The translations under genes and the position numbers were made by a program. This document shows positions 3,077 through 45,151 of a stretch of DNA of 64,000 bases, one piece after another (within the stretch, counting starts at the first letter, position 1; the number at the start of each line of letters is the position of its first letter). Origin of the DNA: a virus; IMG/VR virus record IMGVR_UViG_3300035137_000026, positions 32,001 to 96,000 of that record. The stretch is one strand, 5' to 3'. The notes beneath the pieces are model-generated. The model saw only the letters and a program-made list of their open reading frames with translations, was not told the origin of the DNA and ran no database searches.

Positions 3077-4245
3077 AGTGCTATCTCTTCTTCTGTGCCA
3101 GTATGCTTGCCTTCAGTATCAGATAGCTTAACAACAGGTAGCCACTTACTCTCTCCATATGGCTTGCAATGGCTCATCTTAATAACCATATTAAGTGGCT
3201 TAACGCCTTTAATGTCATTGGTAAGGTTGGTGCCAATGCCAAATGAGCACTTGATCCCTATGTTATCACATTCTTTCTTGAGTTTTGTGGCTACTAGTGG
3301 GCTCAGACTGTCTGAGAATACAATTGTTTTGGATTCAGGGCTGATTCCTAGCTCTATATAATGGTCTTTGACTCTGTGTGCAAAGGCGAATGGGTCGCCT
3401 GAGTCATGCCGTACACCGTCGAATAGCTTGGCGTACTTGGAGCCAAATACCCTAAAGAATGACCTGCTGGTGAATGTATCAGGTAAGGTAATTCCTAGGT
3501 TTCCGTGATATACGTCAACCCAGTGCTTGAGTGCCATATGGTTTGCTTCTTGGTATCCGTACTTGGCTCCATGAAACATGAACCATTCATGTGCCTGCGT
3601 TCCAATAGGTTTGGTAGCATATTCTTGAGCTAGGTGTAGGTTGCTGGTGCCAACAAAGTTGTCTGGTGCAGTAATGGAGTGAACATGCACAATACCGGCA
3701 TGGTGTTTGGCTGAGAACCTCCTGCGAGTGCCAAAGTCAGCATATGCTATGCCAGCCTTGGTAAGATCTTGTGCCTTCATTGCGGTACGGACCACTGCTT
3801 CTTGGATTGAATCTTCATCTGCTTTGGCTGTCATCCTGAAGTACAGCTCGGAGATGACTGCCATCAGCTTCACTTCCCATAGAATTGTGCGGTACCATGG
3901 ACCTTTGATCATAACCCACAATCTACCATCTGGCATGCAGGTGGCGTTCACATCTTTGTAGTTGTATTGATAACCTCTCAGGAAATCGATGAAAACTGGG
4001 GTTAGGAACGGGCAGGCTACTTGAAGCCAAGCTGCCTCATCATATGTGAGGTGCAAGTCTCCCATCATCTCTATCTCTTCCTTTAGCCGGTTAATAAACC
4101 CTTTTGGGAATTTTGTGTTCCCCCTATTGGTAAAGTTATAAATAGCTTGAGCATGTGGATAGCACTGGCATACAGCTTGGCACATGGTCAGCTTGTAGAG
4201 GTCGTCATCCAGCATGCTTTTAATGATTGGAGTGGCCGAGCCCAT
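3049..4245 (-). CDS. pncB: Nicotinate phosphoribosyltransferase
   Basis: MLDDDLYKLTM, DFGTRRRFS, GTSN, GTQAHEW (phospho-His), RHDSGDP, FSDSL, FGIGTNLTND, VKLSDTEGK; SD AGGAGG. Confidence 0.95.
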   Translation of the reverse strand: MGSATPIIKSMLDDDLYKLTMCQAVCQCYPHAQAIYNFTNRGNTKFPKGFINRLKEEIEMMGDLHLTYDEAAWLQVACPFLTPVFIDFLRGYQYNYKDVNATCMPDGRLWVMIKGPWYRTILWEVKLMAVISELYFRMTAKADEDSIQEAVVRTAMKAQDLTKAGIAYADFGTRRRFSAKHHAGIVHVHSITAPDNFVGTSNLHLAQEYATKPIGTQAHEWFMFHGAKYGYQEANHMALKHWVDVYHGNLGITLPDTFTSRSFFRVFGSKYAKLFDGVRHDSGDPFAFAHRVKDHYIELGISPESKTIVFSDSLSPLVATKLKKECDNIGIKCSFGIGTNLTNDIKGVKPLNMVIKMSHCKPYGESKWLPVVKLSDTEGKHTGTEEEIALCKKSLRIS

Positions 4246-4688: not shown

Positions 4689-4921
4689 GCTATAGCCAAC
4701 AGGTTTTCTGCTCTTGAGGATTATGTCTTCCTGAGAACGGCCTTCATCCTTCTTTGGACGAATGCTCCTTTGTAATTCTTGAAGCTCATCAGCTCCTGAA
4801 TCACTACCAGTGCGGGTATAGGCTCGCCACAGCTGTCTACGAATGATGATATACCGTTAGAGAATACTGTAGCTAGGACTGTGGGCTTCATGGTGTTGAG
4901 GAAGTATGAGTCTTCAAGCAT
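4685..4921 (-). pseudogene. Hypothetical gene with in-frame TAA at 4721-4723
   Basis: Track ORF 4721..4921 continues *SSRAENLLAIA* and ends in an ATGA overlap with the next start. Confidence 0.45.
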
Positions 4922-4966
4922 TCTGCTGTTTTCTGTTATGCTGTTTGGTCGTTGAGCTTGGGCATA

Positions 4967-5773
4967 TTACACCAGTACTTTCGTGGTTGTGGACAGCTTC
5001 ATCCCCTTGGCTGTCATTTCTTTAATGAAGTCGTCTTGGAGGTTCTCGAAGCCTTGGACTGGAGAAGTCCCGTCAGCCAAGAGAACCAGCTTCTCGATCA
5101 CCTTGGGGTCGCTGAATCCATCAGCGACATCCCTTACGGTGTTGGCTAGGCAATGAGAGCCGGCCTCTCCTGCGATGAGGACCATGTCGGTCTTCTCGAG
5201 AGTCTGGATGAGCCTGGTGTTCAGCTGTGTTGTAGGGTCGTTGGGATCTGGCACTTCTGCCTTGACGCCGCTGTAGTGTTCGGTGAAGATATTGCTGCCC
5301 TTGGAGACGAAATCGATGGTTTTGAACTTTTTGTCGGCCCACTTGTTGAGTGCGTCCAGCACTTCAGGAACCACGGTGGCTCCAGGGCTGCCAATGAGAC
5401 AGTGGGGAGGCCAGATGCACAGTGGGTACCGCCCACTTGCTTCCAGAGCCTCAGTATAAGCTATCATCCTGGGTGTCAGGTCTGGCTGGGTGGTGTACCA
5501 GACGGCATTTTTGATGTCGTTGGATGTGATGATGGTGAAGGGGTCGGGCTGCTGGCTGCTGGCATTCTTCCACATGGCAGGGTGCGCAACGTCGATCAGG
5601 TGGTGCTGGTCCAACGTGACGTGGATATCTTCTAGCTTGCCCCCTAGCCTAGCGATCATGTCTGCTATCCGGAGCATGTCATTCTCTGCCCCTGTGACGT
5701 AAAGATTGCCTTGTGGGTTACAGAAGTCATGCTGCGGATCGATCAGCAGCAGGTGTACTTTGGCGAATGACAT
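4967..5773 (-). CDS. pncA: Nicotinamidase (isochorismatase/cysteine hydrolase family)
   Basis: LLLIDPQHDFC (catalytic Asp), TLDQH and WPPHC (metal ligands), SKG (Lys), AGEAGSHCL (catalytic Cys); adjacent to pncB/nadD/nadE. Confidence 0.88.
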   Translation of the reverse strand: MSFAKVHLLLIDPQHDFCNPQGNLYVTGAENDMLRIADMIARLGGKLEDIHVTLDQHHLIDVAHPAMWKNASSQQPDPFTIITSNDIKNAVWYTTQPDLTPRMIAYTEALEASGRYPLCIWPPHCLIGSPGATVVPEVLDALNKWADKKFKTIDFVSKGSNIFTEHYSGVKAEVPDPNDPTTQLNTRLIQTLEKTDMVLIAGEAGSHCLANTVRDVADGFSDPKVIEKLVLLADGTSPVQGFENLQDDFIKEMTAKGMKLSTTTKVLV

Positions 5774-8721: not shown

Positions 8722-10028
8722 TAACTGATCTCTTCTGGGTCGACGTATTCGTCGTTATTCTTAGCAATACCTTCTAGCTCACAGAACCAGAAGCTCTTAT
8801 ATTTGTAGTGAGTCTCTACATTAGGAGCTTCTACTCTGAGAACGATACCTTCTCTGATATGGTCAGTATCGAGTAGAGAATTCCCTTGGGATAGTTCCTC
8901 ACATAGTTCTAGTAACTTACTACTATCACCATCATAAATGAATGGTTCTTTAATCTGTGGAACTGTGTCTAGTCCTAGCTCTCTACAACGTGTAACCATC
9001 TGTGTCCATGGTAATTCAGTTACCTCTCTACCTGGACCAGTTCTGGTGATTCTGTAGACTGCAATCTTGTATGTTCCTGGGTCGCAACCATATTTGTACA
9101 CCATCTTGGTTCCATACTTCTTCTTGAGTTTGGAGTCTTTGATGTTGTGCGCACCCATAATCAGGGCACCATCTTCAGAGTACCCTACAATTTCGTAGTA
9201 TAGGGTTTCTCCATCTTGAAGTCCTATATCCCTGATTTTATTATGGATAGTTGCTCTGAATTGTTTACCAGAGTAGTATCCTCCGTCGTCCACTTGTTTA
9301 GGGTCCAGGACCACACGTCGGGAACCAGTGACGTACTTGTACTCGCTGGTCTTAAATTTCTCTCCAAATATTTTATTCCAGGTTCTCTTGAACCAACCGA
9401 GTTCCTTAACCTGACGAAGCTTTCCTGTGCGTGCAGAAGTACCATGTATCTTCTCAGAGATTGAGAGTATTGCTCCAGCTGGGATGAGGTCTACCATCAT
9501 CCTAAGCTTCTGTGTATTGAAGTGCTCACGGAAGTCTGGGAATGATTCCTTTAGGATTCTCTTTGAGCTGCGGCGATCCTTATTTGTCCCACTCCCCATC
9601 ATCTTTCTAGTAGCTGGGGTGTAGTACTTATTACAGATTGGCTTACCATTTAGCTCATCGATTAGGTCACCTTTGGTGAGCCTCTCTATATCAAAGCCAG
9701 TCCACTTGAGCATCTTTAAAGGAACCCAGTAGCCCATAGACATTTCTTTACGAAACCTTTGTGCTCTCACACGTCGGTTGTCATCAAAGAATCCAGCCTT
9801 AGCTTCTGGGTTGGCATTTAGGTGTGTGTGCCTATGTAAGTTATTTCGCTGGCACATCTCCAAGCTTAGCTGTCCGTCTTCAGGAAAGAAGATGCCTAGC
9901 GTGCCTTCTACTATATCTGTAGAGATGATAACTTGATGCCCAGCGGCAGTACCCAGCATAAGCCTATCGGCATTAGAGTGAGATCTTATGTTCACGATAG
10001 GTGTAATAATTGCTTTATAGTTACTCAT
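8721..10028 (-). CDS. ATP-dependent RNA ligase (Rnl2/DRB0094-like) with N-terminal OB-like module
   Basis: N-terminal I..HSNADRL; nucleotidyltransferase motifs EKIHGTSAR, YYEIVG, YRI, REGIVLR, YKYKSF. Confidence 0.85.
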   Translation of the reverse strand: MSNYKAIITPIVNIRSHSNADRLMLGTAAGHQVIISTDIVEGTLGIFFPEDGQLSLEMCQRNNLHRHTHLNANPEAKAGFFDDNRRVRAQRFRKEMSMGYWVPLKMLKWTGFDIERLTKGDLIDELNGKPICNKYYTPATRKMMGSGTNKDRRSSKRILKESFPDFREHFNTQKLRMMVDLIPAGAILSISEKIHGTSARTGKLRQVKELGWFKRTWNKIFGEKFKTSEYKYVTGSRRVVLDPKQVDDGGYYSGKQFRATIHNKIRDIGLQDGETLYYEIVGYSEDGALIMGAHNIKDSKLKKKYGTKMVYKYGCDPGTYKIAVYRITRTGPGREVTELPWTQMVTRCRELGLDTVPQIKEPFIYDGDSSKLLELCEELSQGNSLLDTDHIREGIVLRVEAPNVETHYKYKSFWFCELEGIAKNNDEYVDPEEIS

Positions 10029-10073
10029 CTGTAAGTACCTCTAGTAGTTATTAGATCTTGCCATACGAACCTC

Positions 10074-10346
10074 TTAGTCTTCTACTGGCATCCACTTTCT
10101 AATGGTGACCTCTTTTTCTTCTACCTCTACGATTTCACTATCGTATTGGTACTCATAGTCCGTGAAGTAACTTCCTGATCTACTGGCCGATACTTTCCAG
10201 CAAGTACCATCTGCGTCTCTGAAAATTTTGGTACCAAATGAGTATTTTCCCTCATCAGTGAAACCGATATCCTTGACTAATTTATAATCAGAATGCTCTT
10301 CGTCAAAGATGCTTTCTACTTCTTCTTCTGTAAGTTTCTTCTTCAT
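10074..10346 (-). CDS. Hypothetical acidic protein
   Basis: GGAG SD then MKKKLTEEE; the track start at 10364 lies inside the tRNA 3' end. Confidence 0.7.
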   Translation of the reverse strand: MKKKLTEEEVESIFDEEHSDYKLVKDIGFTDEGKYSFGTKIFRDADGTCWKVSASRSGSYFTDYEYQYDSEIVEVEEKEVTIRKWMPVED

Positions 10347-10358
10347 TCTATTGCTCCT

Positions 10359-10444
10359 TGGCACATCCGGCAGGACTCGAACCTGCAGTGCTTTTCAGCG
10401 CCGGATTAGAAGTCCGGTGGGTTATCCGGTTACCCTACGGATGC
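10359..10444 (-). tRNA. tRNA-Arg(TCT) with a 14-nt variable arm and encoded CCA
   Basis: GCATCCG/CGGATGT acceptor, GGGT/ACCC D stem with A after GG, CCGGA-CTTCTAA-TCCGG, variable CGCTGAAAAGCACT, GCAGG-TTCGAGT-CCTGC, G73-CCA. Confidence 0.93.
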
Positions 10445-10453
10445 ATTATCTGA

Positions 10454-10552
10454 TTACTTTGATCTGTGAGCTTTCTCTTTCTTTACATTTCCTCCAGCTT
10501 CAAACTTGTCTGTATTGATGTCGAACTTTAGTTCTACTTTTGGATCAGACAT
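10454..10552 (-). CDS. 32-aa small protein MSDPKVELKFDINTDKFEAGGNVKKEKAHRSK
   Basis: GAGG SD; overlaps the upstream ORF end and stops just before the tRNA. Confidence 0.45.
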   Translation of the reverse strand: MSDPKVELKFDINTDKFEAGGNVKKEKAHRSK

Positions 10553-10688
10553 TCTGTCCTCTATGTGATGTAAGCATATCTAACAGATTCATCTTGCTAG
10601 GTAACTCGAATAGGTCCCAGTTACCAGACACCTTACAGGTGGCAAGAAACATACCAGTGTTTCTGTCTTAGAATAAGTATAGATGCAT
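10545..10688 (-). pseudogene. Small gene with in-frame TAA at codon 7 (10668-10670)
   Basis: MHLYLF*DRNTGMFLATCKVSGNWDLFELPSKMNLLDMLTSHRGQNV*; start and end both overlap neighbours. Confidence 0.45.
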
Positions 10689-11119
10689 CACTTACCTAAT
10701 ATCTTTCCTAAGCATGGTATACAGAAATACCAACTATGCCATTTACCTTCAAAGATTGCTTTATCTACTCATGCTTTTTCTCCAGGATGGATTAAATGTC
10801 TTACCTTTCCTATCTTAGAGAGATGACGGATATGATTCTTCTTTACTCTTACAATGCGACTAGACTTTAGCCTTAGGTCTGTATCATAGTCGCCATCAAA
10901 CAGATCTACTGTCAGTAGGTCTTTATAGTATTCGAGTTTTAGCTCTCTGGATTCCTTGTTAACTTTATACCAGCTATTATCTTCATATGCTCTTTCAGCC
11001 AGTTCTGCATAAGGAGCTAGCCTTTTACGAACATATGGCTCATGTATCATAAGGGTATGTTCTGGAGGAATTCCATGAATATATGTGAAGAGTTCTCTTA
11101 TCAGGTTGGTAAAGCTCAT
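10688..11119 (-). pseudogene. Hypothetical gene (start MSFTNL at 11119) with in-frame TGA at 10769-10771
   Basis: Continues *VDKAIFEGKWHSWYFCIPCLGKILGK* and ends in a TGATG overlap with the next start. Confidence 0.5.
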
Positions 11120-11129
11120 TATCTTACCT

Positions 11130-11478
11130 TGGTGGACCCATGTGGCATCGAACCGCAGTCCAAACACTATCCATGTATAGATCGTTACATGCTTAGTCTA
11201 CTCTATCCAACCATCTACCAGTGGATATCATAAATGGAGGTTTTGTCTTTTGTGTTTCGCCGCTGATATAAAGACAAACTCTGGCGGCTAGTTACATTAA
11301 ATTGCGCCTCGTCCAAATATGTAATCTCATTGGATTTGGCGGCTAGTTTGCTTACGCAGTGGCTAGCATAGGTTGTACATCGTTGCCGATTGTACTTTGG
11401 TTACTTTCTAATCTGGTACAACCATCCAGGGCATGCACTATAAGCTTCATTAGTACCCGTCGAAGCTATGTCAAGCCC
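11130..11478 (-). ncRNA. ssrA: tmRNA, 349 nt; predicted tag (A)GNDVQPMLATA at 11387-11352
   Basis: 5' GGGCTTGACATAGCTTCGACGGG...GTGCATGCC; 3' GACTAAGCATGTA...GGACTGCGGTTCGATGCCACATGGGTCCACCA; G3-U70 pair and A73-CCA (Ala identity); resume context TACAATC-GGC AAC GAT. Confidence 0.92.
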
Positions 11479-11479
11479 A

Positions 11480-11743
11480 TTATTGGTGTACTTTGACCAA
11501 CCTTAGATCATTATCATGTTCTACCCTATCGTGCAACGTTTTTACGTTTTGGAATAGTTGCCGAAGGTGTTCCATGCAGTGTTTCGCCCATTTGTCTGAC
11601 TCGGAGAGATATTTGTCTTCTGTGTTTGGGATAGGCTGTGGATACATATTCAAACTACTCTGGGCACTAATGATTTCACACATTATGCCTTGGAGAGCAG
11701 TTGCTAAGGTATCATCCTTATTTATTGTTAGCGGCTTTGACAT
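11480..11743 (-). CDS. Hypothetical protein (start MSKPLT at 11743)
   Basis: ORF ends 2 nt before the tmRNA 5' end. Confidence 0.6.
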   Translation of the reverse strand: MSKPLTINKDDTLATALQGIMCEIISAQSSLNMYPQPIPNTEDKYLSESDKWAKHCMEHLRQLFQNVKTLHDRVEHDNDLRLVKVHQ

Positions 11744-11745
11744 TA

Positions 11746-12153
11746 CTATTCTTTCCCATTGACTTTTAGCCATATCTCAGCATTACTAGGAATGGGCGTA
11801 ACTCCTTGTTTCCTCAGGCGAAACTCCCATCCTTTGCCACTAGCACATCTAAGTGGATAATGGTGTGGCTACTTGTCTTCTAGAACCTTTGGGATTATGT
11901 ATACTGTGATGTCTTTTCCATGCTTCTCCCATGTTCTGAACTCGAACTTGATGGTATTCTGGCGGCTATTCAGATTAGTCGTGGTACATCCGTGGGCGAT
12001 TCCATTGCTGTAGAGTATGGCTCCACCACCAAGGAGGGGATCGCCATAATTATTTCGCATGTGGAGCTAACCGCAAATGTAGTCATTGTTGGCTGTTGTA
12101 GTCAAGCTAACTGTTGATAATACCAACAGAATTGTGGCAATTGTTCTCTTCAT
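11746..12153 (-). pseudogene. Secreted-protein gene with two in-frame TAG codons (12067-12069 and 11869-11871)
   Basis: Signal peptide MKRTIATILLVLSTVSLTTTA; one frame throughout: ...ICG*LHMRNNYG...VLEDK*PHHYPL...AEIWLKVNGKE*, ending 2 nt before the next ATG. Confidence 0.6.
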
Positions 12154-12373
12154 GGTGTCTTCTGTTTTGTGGGAAATATTACCCTGTTTTTCCCACAAGA
12201 CTGTGGGAAGGGTAAAGGTGCTGGTTTTTGTCCCTAACACGTTCCCTGGTCATCTTTGGAGGGTGGCCGAGTGGAAAGCACCCTGTGACCTGTATGGGGG
12301 TTGTTAACCTCACCGTCCGTGCTCCGCAACTGGATTTGCTAGGGTCGCTAGGATAAACCAGCAAACCTAATTA

Positions 12374-12677
12374 GTCTGCAGTTTTAGGTCGTACAGTGGA
12401 CCGGGAGCAACACCAGAATGGTAATATGGCCCTCTACCATGGCAGCTATTTAGCGTCAGCTCCGAGACATGGAGGAATAGGCCTGCCCTTAGAGTACTGT
12501 GTGTTGTGCTCCAGGCTTGTCAGTGTGTCAGGATTCCATTACTCTTCTAAGGTCCCAAACCAACGGCGGACCAACGTGAGAAGAGGTAAGATCCTGAATG
12601 GGTTAGCGTATTCCTCCGTCTGTGAATCTGTTCTTAACCATGTATTCCGACCTATGTGGTCTTATGAACTAGCAGAC
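12374..12677. ncRNA. Unidentified multi-helix structured RNA (minus strand by context)
   Basis: Nested complementary segments: 12374-79/12672-77, 12380-83/12667-70, 12385-91/12648-54, 12465-79/12609-21, 12529-34/12591-96, 12542-48/12579-85, 12551-55/12568-72, 12418-23/12435-40; no convincing ORF. Confidence 0.6.
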
Positions 12678-12681
12678 AGAT

Positions 12682-12757
12682 TGAAAGGGGTTGGATTTGA
12701 ACCAACGTTTCCGGGCATCACACCGTGGGTGTCTTAGGCCGCTAGATGACCCTTTCA
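12682..12757 (-). pseudogene. tRNA-like element (Asp/Glu-type D arm) with an unpaired anticodon arm
   Basis: Acceptor GAAAGGG/CCCTTTC, D region TCATCTAGCGGCCTAAGAC, T arm GTTGG-TTCAAAT-CCAAC; anticodon stem does not pair. Confidence 0.65.
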
Positions 12758-12868
12758 GTTAGGCCAGTTTGACCCCTGACCCAAGGGTTCTCCAAGGAGT
12801 TGGTGGGATGGCTGGGGGCAAGCCGTTTGTCTCCCACTAACTAGAAACATTCTAGTTATAACTAATAA

Positions 12869-13396
12869 CTAATAGTACTCTCCGTCTTCATTGGAGTTGT
12901 GGAAGTACCTATCCTCTAGGTTAAGGTCATCTATAAGTCCGGTGGTCTCGCTTAACTGCAACATTGCCTCTGTAATAAATTTGGTCGTGGCTTCATGGTT
13001 CGGTTCTACTATATATTCTTCTGGTTCAGGTTTATCTGTCCATGTTCTGACTATGACTGGCCAGAATGTATTGTTTGCGAGTCCTTCTTGAGTCTTCTTG
13101 ACTGTTACTTCTCTCCCTTGTGCTTTCCTTAGGTGTGGGACTAGCACACATTTTGGTGTAAGCTTGGCTACAACTGCGTAGCCCGAGCTGAGGTCGTACC
13201 TCCTCTTACCAATGCTGTATGATACGCCAGTTACTAGGACATCTTCGCCTTCTACGTCATCGGCTGGGTGTCCCTGTATCCAGGGGAACCATTTTTTACC
13301 CTTTGGTAGGTATTCTTTACCTTTACAGATAGCACTGACGGGCAGTGATCTGCCTGGGGTTACTTTCCTATCCTTCAGGAAGATACTAATCTCCAT
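12869..13396 (-). CDS. Hypothetical protein (likely start MEISIFLK at 13396)
   Basis: GAGGAGG SD before ATG 13396; the longer track ORF overlaps the upstream gene. Confidence 0.7.
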   Translation of the reverse strand: MEISIFLKDRKVTPGRSLPVSAICKGKEYLPKGKKWFPWIQGHPADDVEGEDVLVTGVSYSIGKRRYDLSSGYAVVAKLTPKCVLVPHLRKAQGREVTVKKTQEGLANNTFWPVIVRTWTDKPEPEEYIVEPNHEATTKFITEAMLQLSETTGLIDDLNLEDRYFHNSNEDGEYY

Positions 13397-15539
13397 TGGT
13401 AGCCTCCTCGTATGTCCTGAGGGTTGGTATTTCTGTGTGTCCGAGCTGCCAGATAATCCGGCCGCACTGTTCACATTCCAGCCCCAGCAACCCTTTACCA
13501 GGGATGTGGGCTCCGCTCTGGTTACTGCCTGACTGCGTAATCTCGTACCATTTGAGTTTGCCAATGGCTTGAGCTGGTATTGCCTGTACATGTAGTGCTG
13601 GTACTCTCTTGGCCTCGTCGGCTGAAAGGCACTTGACATGAGTACATGGCAGTGAGGCCTCGATGTTAGTTTCCCTAGAGCTTGTAACCTGCTCTCGGAG
13701 CTGCTCGTACAGGACCTCTCGTCCGAGCAAATGACGCCTAAGCCTTGCGCAGCTTTTGCTCCATCTGGCTTCGTCAGTTATGGAGATTCTGTCTATCAGG
13801 CTAGGGTGGAAGTCGAAAGTCTTGACGAACCTCCACTTGGGAACCAGTTCACCACTCTTATCCCGGAAGAAGCCTCCATCCTTATGCATTGTATAGCGTG
13901 GTGGGTCGTATAGCCTAGCTTCACGCTTCCACTTACGATGTTGCGCCCATGCCATATAGGCCTTCAGGTCGTAGAGGTTATCAATACGGCTGAAGTGCTT
14001 AGCCAGTAGGTCAAGTACCTTGCGGCGCTCTTCGCTAGACTCCCGATTCAGCTTGAGCCTAGCTTTGATGATGTCTACCATCTTATAGATGGAGTCCCAT
14101 TGCTTCTTAGTCAGGAATTCTTCGGTGAATGCCTGCGCTCTGCGTTGTAGCCATATGCTATCTTTGTGTGAGCTGAAGTGGCTGACTACCTGACCATTGT
14201 TGTTGCGCTCGCCAAGGTTGACTTTCTTTCGTCGGTCGAACCATACCCAGACGGCTATTCGTAGCTGTTCTTCGTCTCCCTTCTTATTTTCTCTCCACTC
14301 ACGGATAAATTCTTCTCGGGCGATACTCAGAGCTGAACGGTGAATAACATCTCCGGTTTTGCGGTCAATATGGTCATTAATAGACCAGTTAGCCCACAAT
14401 ACTTTGTCCGAATGGTACATGCCACGAATCTTGCCGAGGAATCCACCAGAACGGCTACGCTGGCCTGTCATTGGGTCAGTAATCCAGGGTCCATAGAGGT
14501 CCCGTTCACTATCACAGCTTGCTGCTTCGCCAAGTAGCTGGTAGAAAAACTCTACCCTGTTTTCTGCTGCTACTTCTGTGTTGAACACTTCTGGCAACCT
14601 AATGCCTTTGTGGATTCTCCTTGGCTGTGAGTAGCCATAGCCACAGTATGGTGAATTTATACATGTGGTTATGTTGCGCCCGACCTCTCGGTCTAGAGCT
14701 TGTTCATATTGAAGCGTTAGTAGTGTCTGCTCTTGGTCAGTTGTAGCTTTGCTAATTAGCTCCCTGAATGTGTCAGTGATAGTTCTGATAGCGGCTTTGG
14801 TCTCGTCGTCTAGCTCTGGCAGTACTGTTGCTGTTGTGCGGGGGTCGTACCGCATTACGACCTCATCGTCGGACTGTTGAAAAGCTGTCTCAGTGTCATC
14901 GTCAGTGTATTCGTCACCCAGGACTGGGTTCTCAGAGCCGCTGGCTACTGCCGAGACGTCGGTTTCTACTCTAGTAGCAAATGGGCTGTGGTATACGTTG
15001 TGGTCTTGGCCTTTGCTATCGTAGGCGATAGCTCCGAGGATGTCGCTGACTCTCTCGGACTCTGTTTCTGGTAATACTATTCCCAGGGCTTCGAGATACA
15101 ATCTGCTGGCAGATGGCCTCTCGTTGAAAGTCTCTATATCGGCCTCTGATCTATCCGAGCCCCACTCGTTGTATTCGTAGACTTGCGTGATTGGGTCAAC
15201 AACGGCGAATAGTGCAGAATTGCTACGGTTAATGAACCATTTATCTGGATCGCCGAGGACGAACTTCAATGACTGTGGAAGCTCGTCTGTTTTGGTGCGG
15301 GCATCGCCGTAGATAATCTCGTCGTTTGCTTCCTGTAGGAGCATAAGCTCAGGAGTGTATGACCTCCTGTCGCCAGCTACATGTTCTGGTGGGGTTTTTG
15401 TCTTGGTTATATGCCAAGCTTTAACATCTTCTGGCGATGCTTCTACTCTCAGCCAGCCATGACGAGTCCAGACCAGCTTGGATGGCTGAGATGCCTTATG
15501 ACGGTTTCGTGCTCCATTGGAGATAGAATGCCTGTTCAT
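13386..15539 (-). CDS. Large hypothetical protein, 717 aa
   Basis: Long ORF with GGAGG-like SD; no family recognised; C-terminal Cys pairs (CTHVKC, CEQC). Confidence 0.8.
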   Translation of the reverse strand: MNRHSISNGARNRHKASQPSKLVWTRHGWLRVEASPEDVKAWHITKTKTPPEHVAGDRRSYTPELMLLQEANDEIIYGDARTKTDELPQSLKFVLGDPDKWFINRSNSALFAVVDPITQVYEYNEWGSDRSEADIETFNERPSASRLYLEALGIVLPETESERVSDILGAIAYDSKGQDHNVYHSPFATRVETDVSAVASGSENPVLGDEYTDDDTETAFQQSDDEVVMRYDPRTTATVLPELDDETKAAIRTITDTFRELISKATTDQEQTLLTLQYEQALDREVGRNITTCINSPYCGYGYSQPRRIHKGIRLPEVFNTEVAAENRVEFFYQLLGEAASCDSERDLYGPWITDPMTGQRSRSGGFLGKIRGMYHSDKVLWANWSINDHIDRKTGDVIHRSALSIAREEFIREWRENKKGDEEQLRIAVWVWFDRRKKVNLGERNNNGQVVSHFSSHKDSIWLQRRAQAFTEEFLTKKQWDSIYKMVDIIKARLKLNRESSEERRKVLDLLAKHFSRIDNLYDLKAYMAWAQHRKWKREARLYDPPRYTMHKDGGFFRDKSGELVPKWRFVKTFDFHPSLIDRISITDEARWSKSCARLRRHLLGREVLYEQLREQVTSSRETNIEASLPCTHVKCLSADEAKRVPALHVQAIPAQAIGKLKWYEITQSGSNQSGAHIPGKGLLGLECEQCGRIIWQLGHTEIPTLRTYEEATNGD

Positions 15540-43051: not shown

Positions 43052-45151
43052 ATGACGCTAAATTTCAACTTTACAGATTACTTTAGGCTTACACAGCCTA
43101 GTGATCAGCAGGTAGAAGAGTGGAAGGATTATCTGGGTGGCATGACTGCTAGTCAGGGTCTTCGTATTATCATGGAGGCTACCCACGCTGCATATCTGAA
43201 TCGTAATGACAGAGTGTATATCCCATCTCGCATGGCTGAGGGTGTTTCTACTTTCAGAACTGGCGAGAAACCAACCAAGCTTCTCAAGCATCACCGCCCA
43301 GACGAAGATCCTGTTGGTGTTATTCGTGGGGCTAGATTTGTACCTACCGTACCCGATGAACTTGCATACAACCCTGATGTTATCAACTTGATGAGCAGCA
43401 GTGCTCCCATTAAGGATCAGCTAAAGTCTATGAGAAATCTATGGCGTTCTGGAGTCTTTCATCAGGAAGGCTGGAGAGGCCTAGGTTACATCGAACTTAT
43501 CGGTGACGTGTATGACAAGACAACGATTGAGCAGATTCAGGATGGACGTTTTGACGCTGTGTCTACTAGCTTCCGTTCCCCTGGACATGTATACTGCTTT
43601 ATCTGTGGACAGAACTGGGCCAAAGATGGCTACTGTGATCACGATCATAGCGAACTCTATACAGAAGATGGAGCAGAAGAAGATGATATGAAGTTTCCAG
43701 CAATGGCAATTGCAGGGCTTCATGACTATATAGAAACCAGCTTTATTACATTTGAAGGCGATGCATTAGCAACGGTTAAAGTAATGGATGAAGCTAATGC
43801 TGATAACAATATTACGTTCTTCTTGCCAGATACTTGGAAGGAAGAGCCAACCACTTGTGAACCCACTTTTGAGTTTAAGGACTTCAAGGAGGACGATATG
43901 GCAAAGCCAGCAACGAAAGATGAAATTACTCTTTCCGACGCCGAGCAGAAAGTTCTCGATATCATTAAGAAACTTCGTGCGGATGCTAAGGATGAAGACC
44001 TTATTCCGTTGGCCCAGAAGATTGTGGTCCTTCGGGATGAGGAAGGATTCCTTCCATTCCAGCAGGAAGCGGAGATTGATGAAGAGACGGCTATCCAGTA
44101 CGCTCTTGAAGACTTAGAGACATCCGATCAGGAAGTGGACGCAGATGCAGTGTATATGGAGATGGAGAAAGAATTAGACGAACTAGATCTTGCAGATGCT
44201 AAGCTTAGTACTAAGACTCGTAAGGGCCTACCTAGCTCAGCATTCTGTGGTCCAGATCGTTCTTTCCCAGTACCGGACTGTGCACATGTTACTGCTGCCC
44301 GCCGCCTAATTGGTCGTTACAAAGGTCCAGGCAACAAATCTTCGATTCTTGCTTGTGTATCTCGTAAGGCCAAGTCTCTAGGTTGCAACAGCAGCGATAG
44401 CGGTGAGGAACAGGGTACCAACAACGACTCTACCAACACGAACCTACTCCCATGTGAGGAAAACAGCCTAAAGAATATGGAAGACAACGATCTCCGTAAT
44501 GTTTATATGGCTGCTGAGCTAGAGCTTGTATCTCGAGGCCAGAAGATGGCATTTGAGTGCAAGGAGTGCGCTCTTCACGAGGAGAAGGTCAAGAAGGCCG
44601 AGAAATCAGTCGCAAAGGCTGAAGCTAAGGTCGAAAAACTCAATGATACTCTAGGTATTCTACGTGAGGAACTTCAGCGTGCATATGCAGATTATGCTGC
44701 TCAGGTTGACATCACAGTAGAAGCTAAGGCATCATTACACGCAGAACAGGTTGAAAATCTTGCGCTAATTGGAGTTTTGAATAAGAAGTATGATACTCTT
44801 GATGCAGCAAAAGTTGAAATCAAGGATAAAGACCTTGGTAAACTAGGAGAGGCCATCAAAGATGGCTTTGACCTTGAAAGCGTGACAGCGAAACTTAATG
44901 ACGGTATGGCTAGAGAGCCAGAGGGTATAGTGAAGGATCCCACGGTAAATCCGGATGGAGATAATCCACGGCTTCCAGAGGAACTTACAGGCCCAGCTCT
45001 GATGGCTATTGACAACATTAAAGAATTAGTCTCGGATGGCAAGATTTCTGATGCGAAGCACATTTATGCTACAATGAAGAAGTTGAAGTTGTTCCATGAT
45101 GAATTAACATTTGAAAGCCTTTCAGTGGAAGACGAAAACACCACTGAGTAG
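43052..45151 (+). CDS. Prohead protease/scaffold polyprotein
   Basis: KLLKHH...PVG (His), IQDGRFDAVSTSF (Ser), CFICG...CDH, ETSF; acidic coiled-coil C-terminus; AAGGAG SD before ATG 43052. Confidence 0.75.
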   Translation: MTLNFNFTDYFRLTQPSDQQVEEWKDYLGGMTASQGLRIIMEATHAAYLNRNDRVYIPSRMAEGVSTFRTGEKPTKLLKHHRPDEDPVGVIRGARFVPTVPDELAYNPDVINLMSSSAPIKDQLKSMRNLWRSGVFHQEGWRGLGYIELIGDVYDKTTIEQIQDGRFDAVSTSFRSPGHVYCFICGQNWAKDGYCDHDHSELYTEDGAEEDDMKFPAMAIAGLHDYIETSFITFEGDALATVKVMDEANADNNITFFLPDTWKEEPTTCEPTFEFKDFKEDDMAKPATKDEITLSDAEQKVLDIIKKLRADAKDEDLIPLAQKIVVLRDEEGFLPFQQEAEIDEETAIQYALEDLETSDQEVDADAVYMEMEKELDELDLADAKLSTKTRKGLPSSAFCGPDRSFPVPDCAHVTAARRLIGRYKGPGNKSSILACVSRKAKSLGCNSSDSGEEQGTNNDSTNTNLLPCEENSLKNMEDNDLRNVYMAAELELVSRGQKMAFECKECALHEEKVKKAEKSVAKAEAKVEKLNDTLGILREELQRAYADYAAQVDITVEAKASLHAEQVENLALIGVLNKKYDTLDAAKVEIKDKDLGKLGEAIKDGFDLESVTAKLNDGMAREPEGIVKDPTVNPDGDNPRLPEELTGPALMAIDNIKELVSDGKISDAKHIYATMKKLKLFHDELTFESLSVEDENTTE

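Follow-up and report, generated by a model that had tools for sequence, protein, structure and literature searches.

The DNA analysed here (the window) is a 64,000-nt stretch with a G+C content of 46%, which makes up bases 32001–96000 of a 197,730-bp uncultured viral (phage) record bearing direct terminal repeats. In a 45-kb arm of this phage all genes, tRNAs and the tmRNA lie on the minus strand. Read in transcription order on this strand, the locus comprises a 717-aa ORF (13386–15539), a 175-aa ORF (12869–13396), a non-coding stretch, a small signal-peptide ORF (from 12153 downward), a 97-aa ORF, a tmRNA (11130–11478; a separate gene scoring 71.7 bits with the Rfam model, and the sole tmRNA match), a tRNA-Arg and, after it, an RNA ligase, a macrodomain-like ORF and a Thg1-like enzyme. 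ARAGORN called 21 tRNAs, and five more loci matched the tRNA model, all on the minus strand; the 21 tRNAs, the tmRNA, Thg1 and the RNA ligase form a co-oriented island around the non-coding stretch. A unit of ~640 nt was delimited within this stretch, which on the minus (gene) strand runs from 12841 to 12221 and consists of a 5' module with two hairpins (U, 12757–12841), a tRNA-shaped element (T, 12682–12756), a lineage-specific domain (I, 12471–12677) and a conserved 3' domain of ~250 nt (D, 12221–12470); a 4-nt linker, AUCU (12678–12681), separates the discriminator base of T from I. Over 12200–12800 the AT skew is about zero and the G+C content is raised, which is consistent with paired RNA. 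No promoter or terminator was recognisable at the locus, and a search of the minus strand 3' of D gave no terminator-like site.

The segment 12374–12677 had been described in an earlier note as a self-contained RNA of about 300 nt with many nested helices. All of the complementary segments listed there are present, and they are contained in the minimum-free-energy folds of the segment, which are better than those of all 100 dinucleotide-shuffled controls on both strands (−107.6 kcal/mol, z −3.45 and 0/100 shuffles as good for the plus strand; −100.2 kcal/mol, z −3.77 and 0/100 for the minus strand). The inner helices were robust when a 670-nt ensemble was calculated (p 0.99 for the 9-bp helix, 0.92 for CAGGAU/AUCCUG and 0.97 for CUCUUCU/AGAAGAG). 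Of the terminal helix supposed to close the structure, the paired segments exist but the pairing was not robust in the same ensemble (p 0.29 for GUCUGC/GCAGAC and 0.02 for UAGGUCG/CGACCUA), and this helix is not conserved. The sole ORF (12396–12737, plus strand, 113 aa) runs antisense across T, has no Pfam match and is not conserved, in keeping with the claim that no credible ORF is present, and an Rfam scan of the segment at E up to 10 returned no known family on either strand. By ORF checks, folds and Rfam the segment is non-coding, structured and without a match to a known family, as had been proposed. The proposal of a self-contained RNA did not hold: the helix-bearing part, I, is absent from a related phage, and the conserved parts, D and U, lie mostly outside the segment. 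The segment consists of I and the 5' 97 nt of D, and its boundaries are not natural because 12374–12470 belongs to a conserved domain that reaches ~12221, 150 nt past the proposed end. It is one lineage-specific piece of the ~640-nt non-coding unit around a tRNA look-alike.

For the comparison between phages, homologue searches with three flanking proteins returned 11, 2 and 1 proteins, and the search with the 717-aa ORF yielded ten relatives at 31–64% identity; single-protein scans of IMG/VR with the flanking proteins gave no close relatives. The DNA comparison took in some of the relatives' loci, and three on Logan contigs (SRR13394437, SRR34261169 and SRR19514063) were left out. One contig of 109 kb (L005; 58% protein identity) keeps U, T and D but not I, and a second (L007; 55% protein identity) shares a smaller part, U and T. 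The more distant loci (L006 and L008–L016) showed no similarity to U, I or D, either by blastn or with a covariance model (R1), which for D finds the window and L005 only. Window positions 12850–12751, which contain U, match L005:8659–8758 at 78% identity, and positions 12473–12221, corresponding to D, match L005:8821–9044 at 70% identity. U and D are conserved at the level of the flanking protein genes (67–73% identical between the window and L005); the remaining intergenic DNA of the two phages gave no alignment. The U-T module of L007 has the opposite orientation to the neighbouring genes and lies by a 152-aa ORF, without D next to it on this short contig; the modules are therefore separable, and the four parts need not occur as a unit. 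Searches with blastn and tblastn against GenBank phages gave no match, nor did two conserved-block patterns in metagenome contigs or two in species genomes, and four patterns from the conserved blocks of D and U gave chance matches only, or none, in viral contigs.

Other RNA features were observed at the relatives' loci. L005 carries a second tRNA-like element (L005:9051–9183) that follows D, is ~132 nt long and has a long internal insert; it scored 25.4 bits over 9118–9182 and is followed by ~300 nt more of unaligned non-coding sequence before the next ORF. An ARAGORN tRNA with a four-base anticodon (aata) is present at L008:5609–5688 (49 bits with the Rfam tRNA model). At the position of the U-T-I-D unit, L010 has an unrelated stretch of ~760 nt (3323–4086; the same in L009 and L011) with a 41-aa ORF call (3682–3807) as its only called gene and without an Rfam match, and then a tRNA-Met. 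The island is made up of tRNA-shaped and other RNA modules in a mosaic that varies from phage to phage.

U consists of a first hairpin with a C-rich loop (H1, ~12799–12841) and a second with a 9-bp stem and a GGGGUNAA loop (H2, ~12761–12786). A flanking hairpin reported earlier near 12800–12840 is real and conserved. The nine pairs of H2 are kept across changes from C-G to U-A, from U.G to C-G and from G.U to A-U. Conservation of the fold was assessed by shuffling alignment columns within conservation classes; for the three U sequences this gave z −3.24 on the gene strand and −1.87 on the antisense strand. U and the blocks of D are single-copy in the genome, and a repeated promoter or terminator motif was rejected for this reason.

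T scored 34.9 bits with the Rfam tRNA model on the minus strand, above the gathering cut-off of 29, which bears out the tRNA-like neighbour that had been placed 4 nt from the segment. It has a 7-bp acceptor stem (GAAAGGG/CCCUUUC), A73, no encoded CCA, a canonical D loop (A14, G18 G19, A21) and a canonical T arm. Its anticodon arm departs from the standard form and encloses 15 nt where 13 are usual: ARAGORN made no call by default and with relaxed settings returned an 8-nt loop on a stem with 3/5 pairs, and an alternative drawing has 4 bp, an internal loop and G33. A 5-bp anticodon stem, a 7-nt loop, U33 and a purine at 37 were looked for and not found in this arm. In L007 the counterpart of T (43 bits) has two acceptor pairs changed compensatorily and a 5-nt ‘anticodon’ loop, and in L005 it has another acceptor sequence, a compensatory change in the T stem and a loop without U33; the anticodon arm is non-canonical in all three phages and different in each. 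T is probably non-decoding. Selection keeps the half of T that is read by RNase P, RNase Z and the CCA-adding enzyme, not the decoding half, and since the recognition half is kept and the decoding half is not, T was read as a processing or recognition module. The acceptor stem has p 0.26 in the 670-nt ensemble, a value so low that the ensemble test says little for a long transcript. The linker 12678–12681 is the expected RNase Z/E cleavage zone, and AAUCUG is also found 3' of the T element in L007.

An amber-suppressor reading of T was prompted by two in-frame TAGs in the next ORF. The D-arm region can be drawn as GGGUC-AUCUAGC-GGCCU, with CUA in an anticodon-like loop; this drawing was rejected because it breaks the 7-bp acceptor stem, requires either a 9-nt gap or a fold lacking the D arm, and separates T stem and acceptor stem by 2 nt, and because a textbook D loop results when T is read canonically. 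A tRNA whose anticodon is convincingly CUA was not found. The signal-peptide ORF (11869–12153, minus strand) has its TAGs at 12067–12069 and 11869–11871; the intact 135-aa orthologue of L005 (L005:9497–9904) has a Trp codon (TGG) at both positions, and protein similarity to this orthologue persists past each TAG with no frameshift. The ORF either became a pseudogene very recently, by two G-to-A changes, or is expressed with TAG read-through. Genome-wide recoding of a stop codon was rejected, as the rise in coverage was similar for the three stops and TAG terminates 61 of 180 ORFs. Outside the window, tRNA-model matches that ARAGORN did not call were found on the minus strand at positions 15071–15197, 4899–4970 and 191866–191949 of the phage record (G000:C1). 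The first of these, 127 nt long, has canonical acceptor, D and T arms and an anticodon stem that runs into an insert of ~55–70 nt holding a T-arm-like hairpin, and is another non-decoding tRNA-shaped RNA; the match at 4899–4970 looks like a tRNA-Gln(CUG).

I is the body of the feature described in the earlier note and is composed of a 56-nt leader (12622–12677) and a Y-shaped core (12471–12621). The core is closed by the 9-bp GGAGGAAUA/UAUUCCUCC helix, which is extended by pairing of AGAC (12618–12621) with GUCU (12464–12467, within the first block of D), and holds a 90-nt three-helix arm and a short hairpin; its helices have p 0.92–0.99 in the 670-nt ensemble. All of the single-sequence stability of the flagged segment is located in I, for which z was −2.4 on the gene strand and −4.2 on the antisense (plus) strand. 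I is cleanly absent from L005, where the T arm and the 3' acceptor strand join the AUGUCUCGGAGCUGAC block of D directly, so the helices described earlier are specific to this phage. I is present as one copy in the genome, no homologue was found in phage, viral or other loci, and an I-specific 22-mer had no match in viral contigs.

Several of these properties would suit a functionless or selfish insertion between T and D (a self-complementary spacer or a miniature mobile element), with only U, T and D mattering: the clean absence from L005, where T adjoins the AUGUCUC block of D, the lack of a homologue in all searches, short UGUCU repeats on either side of the I site, and main helices that are perfect Watson–Crick inverted repeats and fold on both strands. 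Such an insertion is nevertheless considered unlikely, since I is single-copy, its inverted repeats are not terminal, and L005 already holds both UGUCU copies, so that there is no true target-site duplication; expansion segments like I are, besides, normal in large functional RNAs, and I matches the neighbouring RNA domains in G+C content and AT skew. Within the overall explanation given below, which is held with moderate confidence, I would be an expansion or insertion between T and the first conserved block of D and not the functional core.

The strand preference of I also bears on the possibility that I, or the whole of 12374–12677, is a separate plus-strand RNA, antisense to the island. 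On the plus strand I has a fold of greater stability that is also more exceptional (z −4.2 vs −2.4), the energy of the entire segment is lower there (see above), and G.U pairs in three plus-strand helices become A.C mismatches on the minus strand. However, the minus strand carries all genes, tRNAs and the tmRNA of the 45-kb arm and is also favoured by the adjoining conserved domains, and a promoter-like site for the plus strand was not found upstream within 12100–12470; a plus-strand RNA is accordingly regarded as improbable.

D contains the invariant blocks AUGUCUCGGAGCUGAC, UAAAUAGCUGCC, AAACUGCAGACU, AGGUUUGCUG, GAGCACGGACG, CACAGGUCA and GGAACGUGUUAG, and is 70% identical to its L005 counterpart when gaps are counted and 81% per column. 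The two sequences differ by indels of 1, 12, 1, 2, 6, 3 and 4 nt, and stops are present in all frames; coding was ruled out because the indels are not multiples of 3 and every frame has stops. RNAalifold with the two sequences gave 53 pairs, 10 of which (10/53) change yet stay paired. On the gene strand the consensus fold had −44.0 kcal/mol against −28.8 ± 3.8 kcal/mol for column shuffles (z −3.97, 0/100), and on the antisense strand z was −1.31. The column shuffles for D and U favour a conserved fold on the gene strand only. In single sequences D gave z ~0 on either strand, with minimum free energies that favour the antisense strand, and the consensus helices have p ~0 in the window's own thermodynamic ensemble; two D sequences are too few for a firm structure. 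The L005 region as a whole folds no better than shuffles (z −0.31), and covariation is thin throughout because only two (D) or three (U, T) sequences were compared.

The absence of a thermodynamic signal for D on both strands, together with conservation in the form of invariant blocks of 9–16 nt, could also mean that the conserved blocks of D and U are signals at the DNA level (a protein-binding, replication or recombination site) and not RNA structure. Low probability is given to this explanation: the blocks are single-copy and not iterated, the variable segments between them change with pairs kept and with a clear strand asymmetry, and the region has no AT-rich unwinding region and no skew switch. 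A leader of the downstream ORF was likewise considered and rejected, as the distance to this ORF is 66 nt in the window vs ~450 nt in L005, and as L005 has another tRNA-like element between D and the ORF.

Known RNA families were searched with Rfam, both with the gathering threshold and with E values up to 10, in slices that included window positions 9500–14000 and 12120–12880 (761 nt) and L005 8640–9500 (861 nt); three window slices and three sets of loci gave nothing besides tRNA and tmRNA. A covariance model for GOLLD, covering its conserved 3' domain, is included in Rfam; neither this model nor that for ROOL matched in the window slices or in L005, and the suggestion that the RNA could be a divergent GOLLD or ROOL was not upheld. 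As with GOLLD, the unit lies in a tRNA/tmRNA island and has a conserved D and a variable I. The models for RNase P RNA, SRP RNA, 6S RNA and tmRNA did not match within 12120–12880, and for group I introns there was no Rfam match, no conserved P7/P3/P8 core and no flanking exons, in agreement with the earlier impression that RNase P, SRP and group I signatures are lacking. By these searches, and by that for the Ro-binding motif given below, the U-T-I-D unit is not GOLLD, ROOL, a Y RNA, a group I intron, RNase P or tmRNA. For a very divergent GOLLD or ROOL one can point to the same genomic habitat and to the layout with a conserved 3' part, a variable 5' part and a tRNA between, and for a degenerate group I intron to CUGCAGACUAAU and AAAUAGCUGCC, which we take to resemble the R and S elements. 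Both are highly improbable, given that no Rfam model matched even at E up to 10 in slices of 761 and 861 nt; as for the intron, a candidate 3' strand of P7, with a P7-like pairing downstream of a P8-like hairpin, is present in the window and not in L005, exons are lacking, and T is complete on its own, so that there is no interrupted host gene.

The phage encodes its own Ro60 (TROVE) homologue (G000:C1:29555–31195, minus strand, 86 bits), and the unit might be a Y-RNA-like partner of this protein, with T as its tRNA-like module. Bacterial and phage Y RNAs carry tRNA-like domains and a Ro-binding motif, GNCGAAN0-1G, and are reported ‘within 4 kb’ of Ro60 (PMC4201824). In the leader of I, GGUCGGAA is faintly like GGUCCGA. 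Against a Y RNA, the motif is absent from both strands of positions 44100–44900 of the phage record; the unit (44221–44841 in the same numbering) is on the same strand as Ro60 but 13 kb from it, well outside ~4 kb; T has normal tRNA topology and its own ends; and the GGUC helix is missing from L005. Better motif-bearing candidates lie directly downstream of Ro60, and there is hardly any probability left for U-T-I-D in this role. In the region outside the window that holds Ro60 (G000:C1:28200–31200, minus strand), no Rfam Y RNA match was obtained, and the motif occurs just downstream of the gene on the same strand in four copies (29480, 28545, 28389 and 28221) of the form GGCCGAA(A)G; a UAUC box comes after the first three, whose sequence is GGCCGAAG. 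These four sites are candidate phage Y RNAs.

The U-T-I-D region does not code for protein, its parts U, T and D are conserved, and changes that preserve structure favour the gene strand; compensatory changes of this kind were seen in H2, in the acceptor and T stems of T and in the helices of D. U-T-D appears to be structured and belongs to no described family, and the helices flagged earlier make up a lineage-specific domain within it. The explanation preferred here, to which about even weight is given, is that U-T-I-D is a new, rare, tRNA-island-associated structured RNA that is freed by tRNA-type processing and in which I is an expansion or insertion. For this RNA we infer that it is transcribed, where it is cut, and that the products are stable and may act in trans. 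Release by tRNA-type processing, also put forward in the earlier note, is plausible because the flagged stretch directly follows a tRNA-shaped element in a tRNA/tmRNA island. The unit would be transcribed from the minus strand with the surrounding genes, as part of a long transcript of the tRNA/tmRNA island. T, which keeps the acceptor stem and the D and T arms but has no usable anticodon arm, would serve in this transcript as a processing signal, the features read by RNase P, RNase Z and the CCA-adding enzyme being kept and the decoding arm lost. Cuts at both ends of T would free an RNA of ~100 nt (U) and one of ~460 nt (I and D), and both products would then be stable structured RNAs, as are the T4 species I/II RNAs or GOLLD with linker tRNAs.

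A further reading, decidedly unlikely in our estimate, is that U-T-I-D represents a new class of GOLLD/ROOL-like large phage RNAs, in which a conserved two-domain scaffold is covalently linked to a non-decoding tRNA mimic and possibly acts as an assembly, cage or decoy. If so, this class would sit in an island for RNA repair and translation rescue, and the targets of a decoy would be host factors that recognise the acceptor/T-arm half of a tRNA, such as defence toxins that attack tRNAs, or processing enzymes. The large structured RNAs that accompany phage tRNA islands have long been puzzling, and we know of no assigned function for GOLLD, ROOL or the T4 species I/II RNAs; an unrelated further family would add a point of comparison. 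A tRNA shape that lacks decoding features but has the acceptor/T-arm half would suggest that the link of such RNAs to tRNAs is processing or shape recognition, not translation. The case for a further RNA family, judged from two to three sequences of a rare clade, is weak at present.

MALAT1-mascRNA and mitochondrial tRNA punctuation are examples of tRNA-like processing signals. T resembles them as a tRNA shape without decoding that lies between RNA segments, at which RNase P and RNase Z could cut; these systems are eukaryotic or organellar, whereas U-T-I-D is from a phage and its cleavage is predicted. With YrlA the unit shares a non-coding RNA that contains a tRNA mimic, in a genome encoding Ro60 and RNA-repair enzymes; it differs in the lack of the Ro-binding motif, in its distance of 13 kb from Ro60 and in the ordinary tRNA topology of T, the tRNA-like module of YrlA being embedded in the Ro-binding stem. 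GOLLD and ROOL are found near phage tRNA islands, GOLLD sometimes with tRNAs in a linker and with a 3' region that is conserved and a 5' region that is less so (bioRxiv 10.1101/2024.12.08.627333). They are like U-T-I-D in this location, in having many helices and in a length of several hundred nucleotides, and GOLLD with linker tRNAs and a conserved 3' region resembles the layout of the unit; unlike them, U-T-I-D has no Rfam match, its embedded tRNA is non-decoding, it has two to three members, and its covariation is too thin for the term ‘ornate’. In T4, the tRNAs and the species I/II RNAs come from one precursor of 1.75 kb, and the latter are stable non-tRNA RNAs freed from the phage tRNA precursor by tRNA-processing enzymes (PMC2330249). 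U-T-I-D is likened to species I/II by position and presumed processing only. At ~120–140 nt, the T4 RNAs are shorter than U-T-I-D. Judged by habitat and layout, U-T-I-D would work most like these tRNA-island phage RNAs, that is, GOLLD with linker tRNAs and T4 species I/II.
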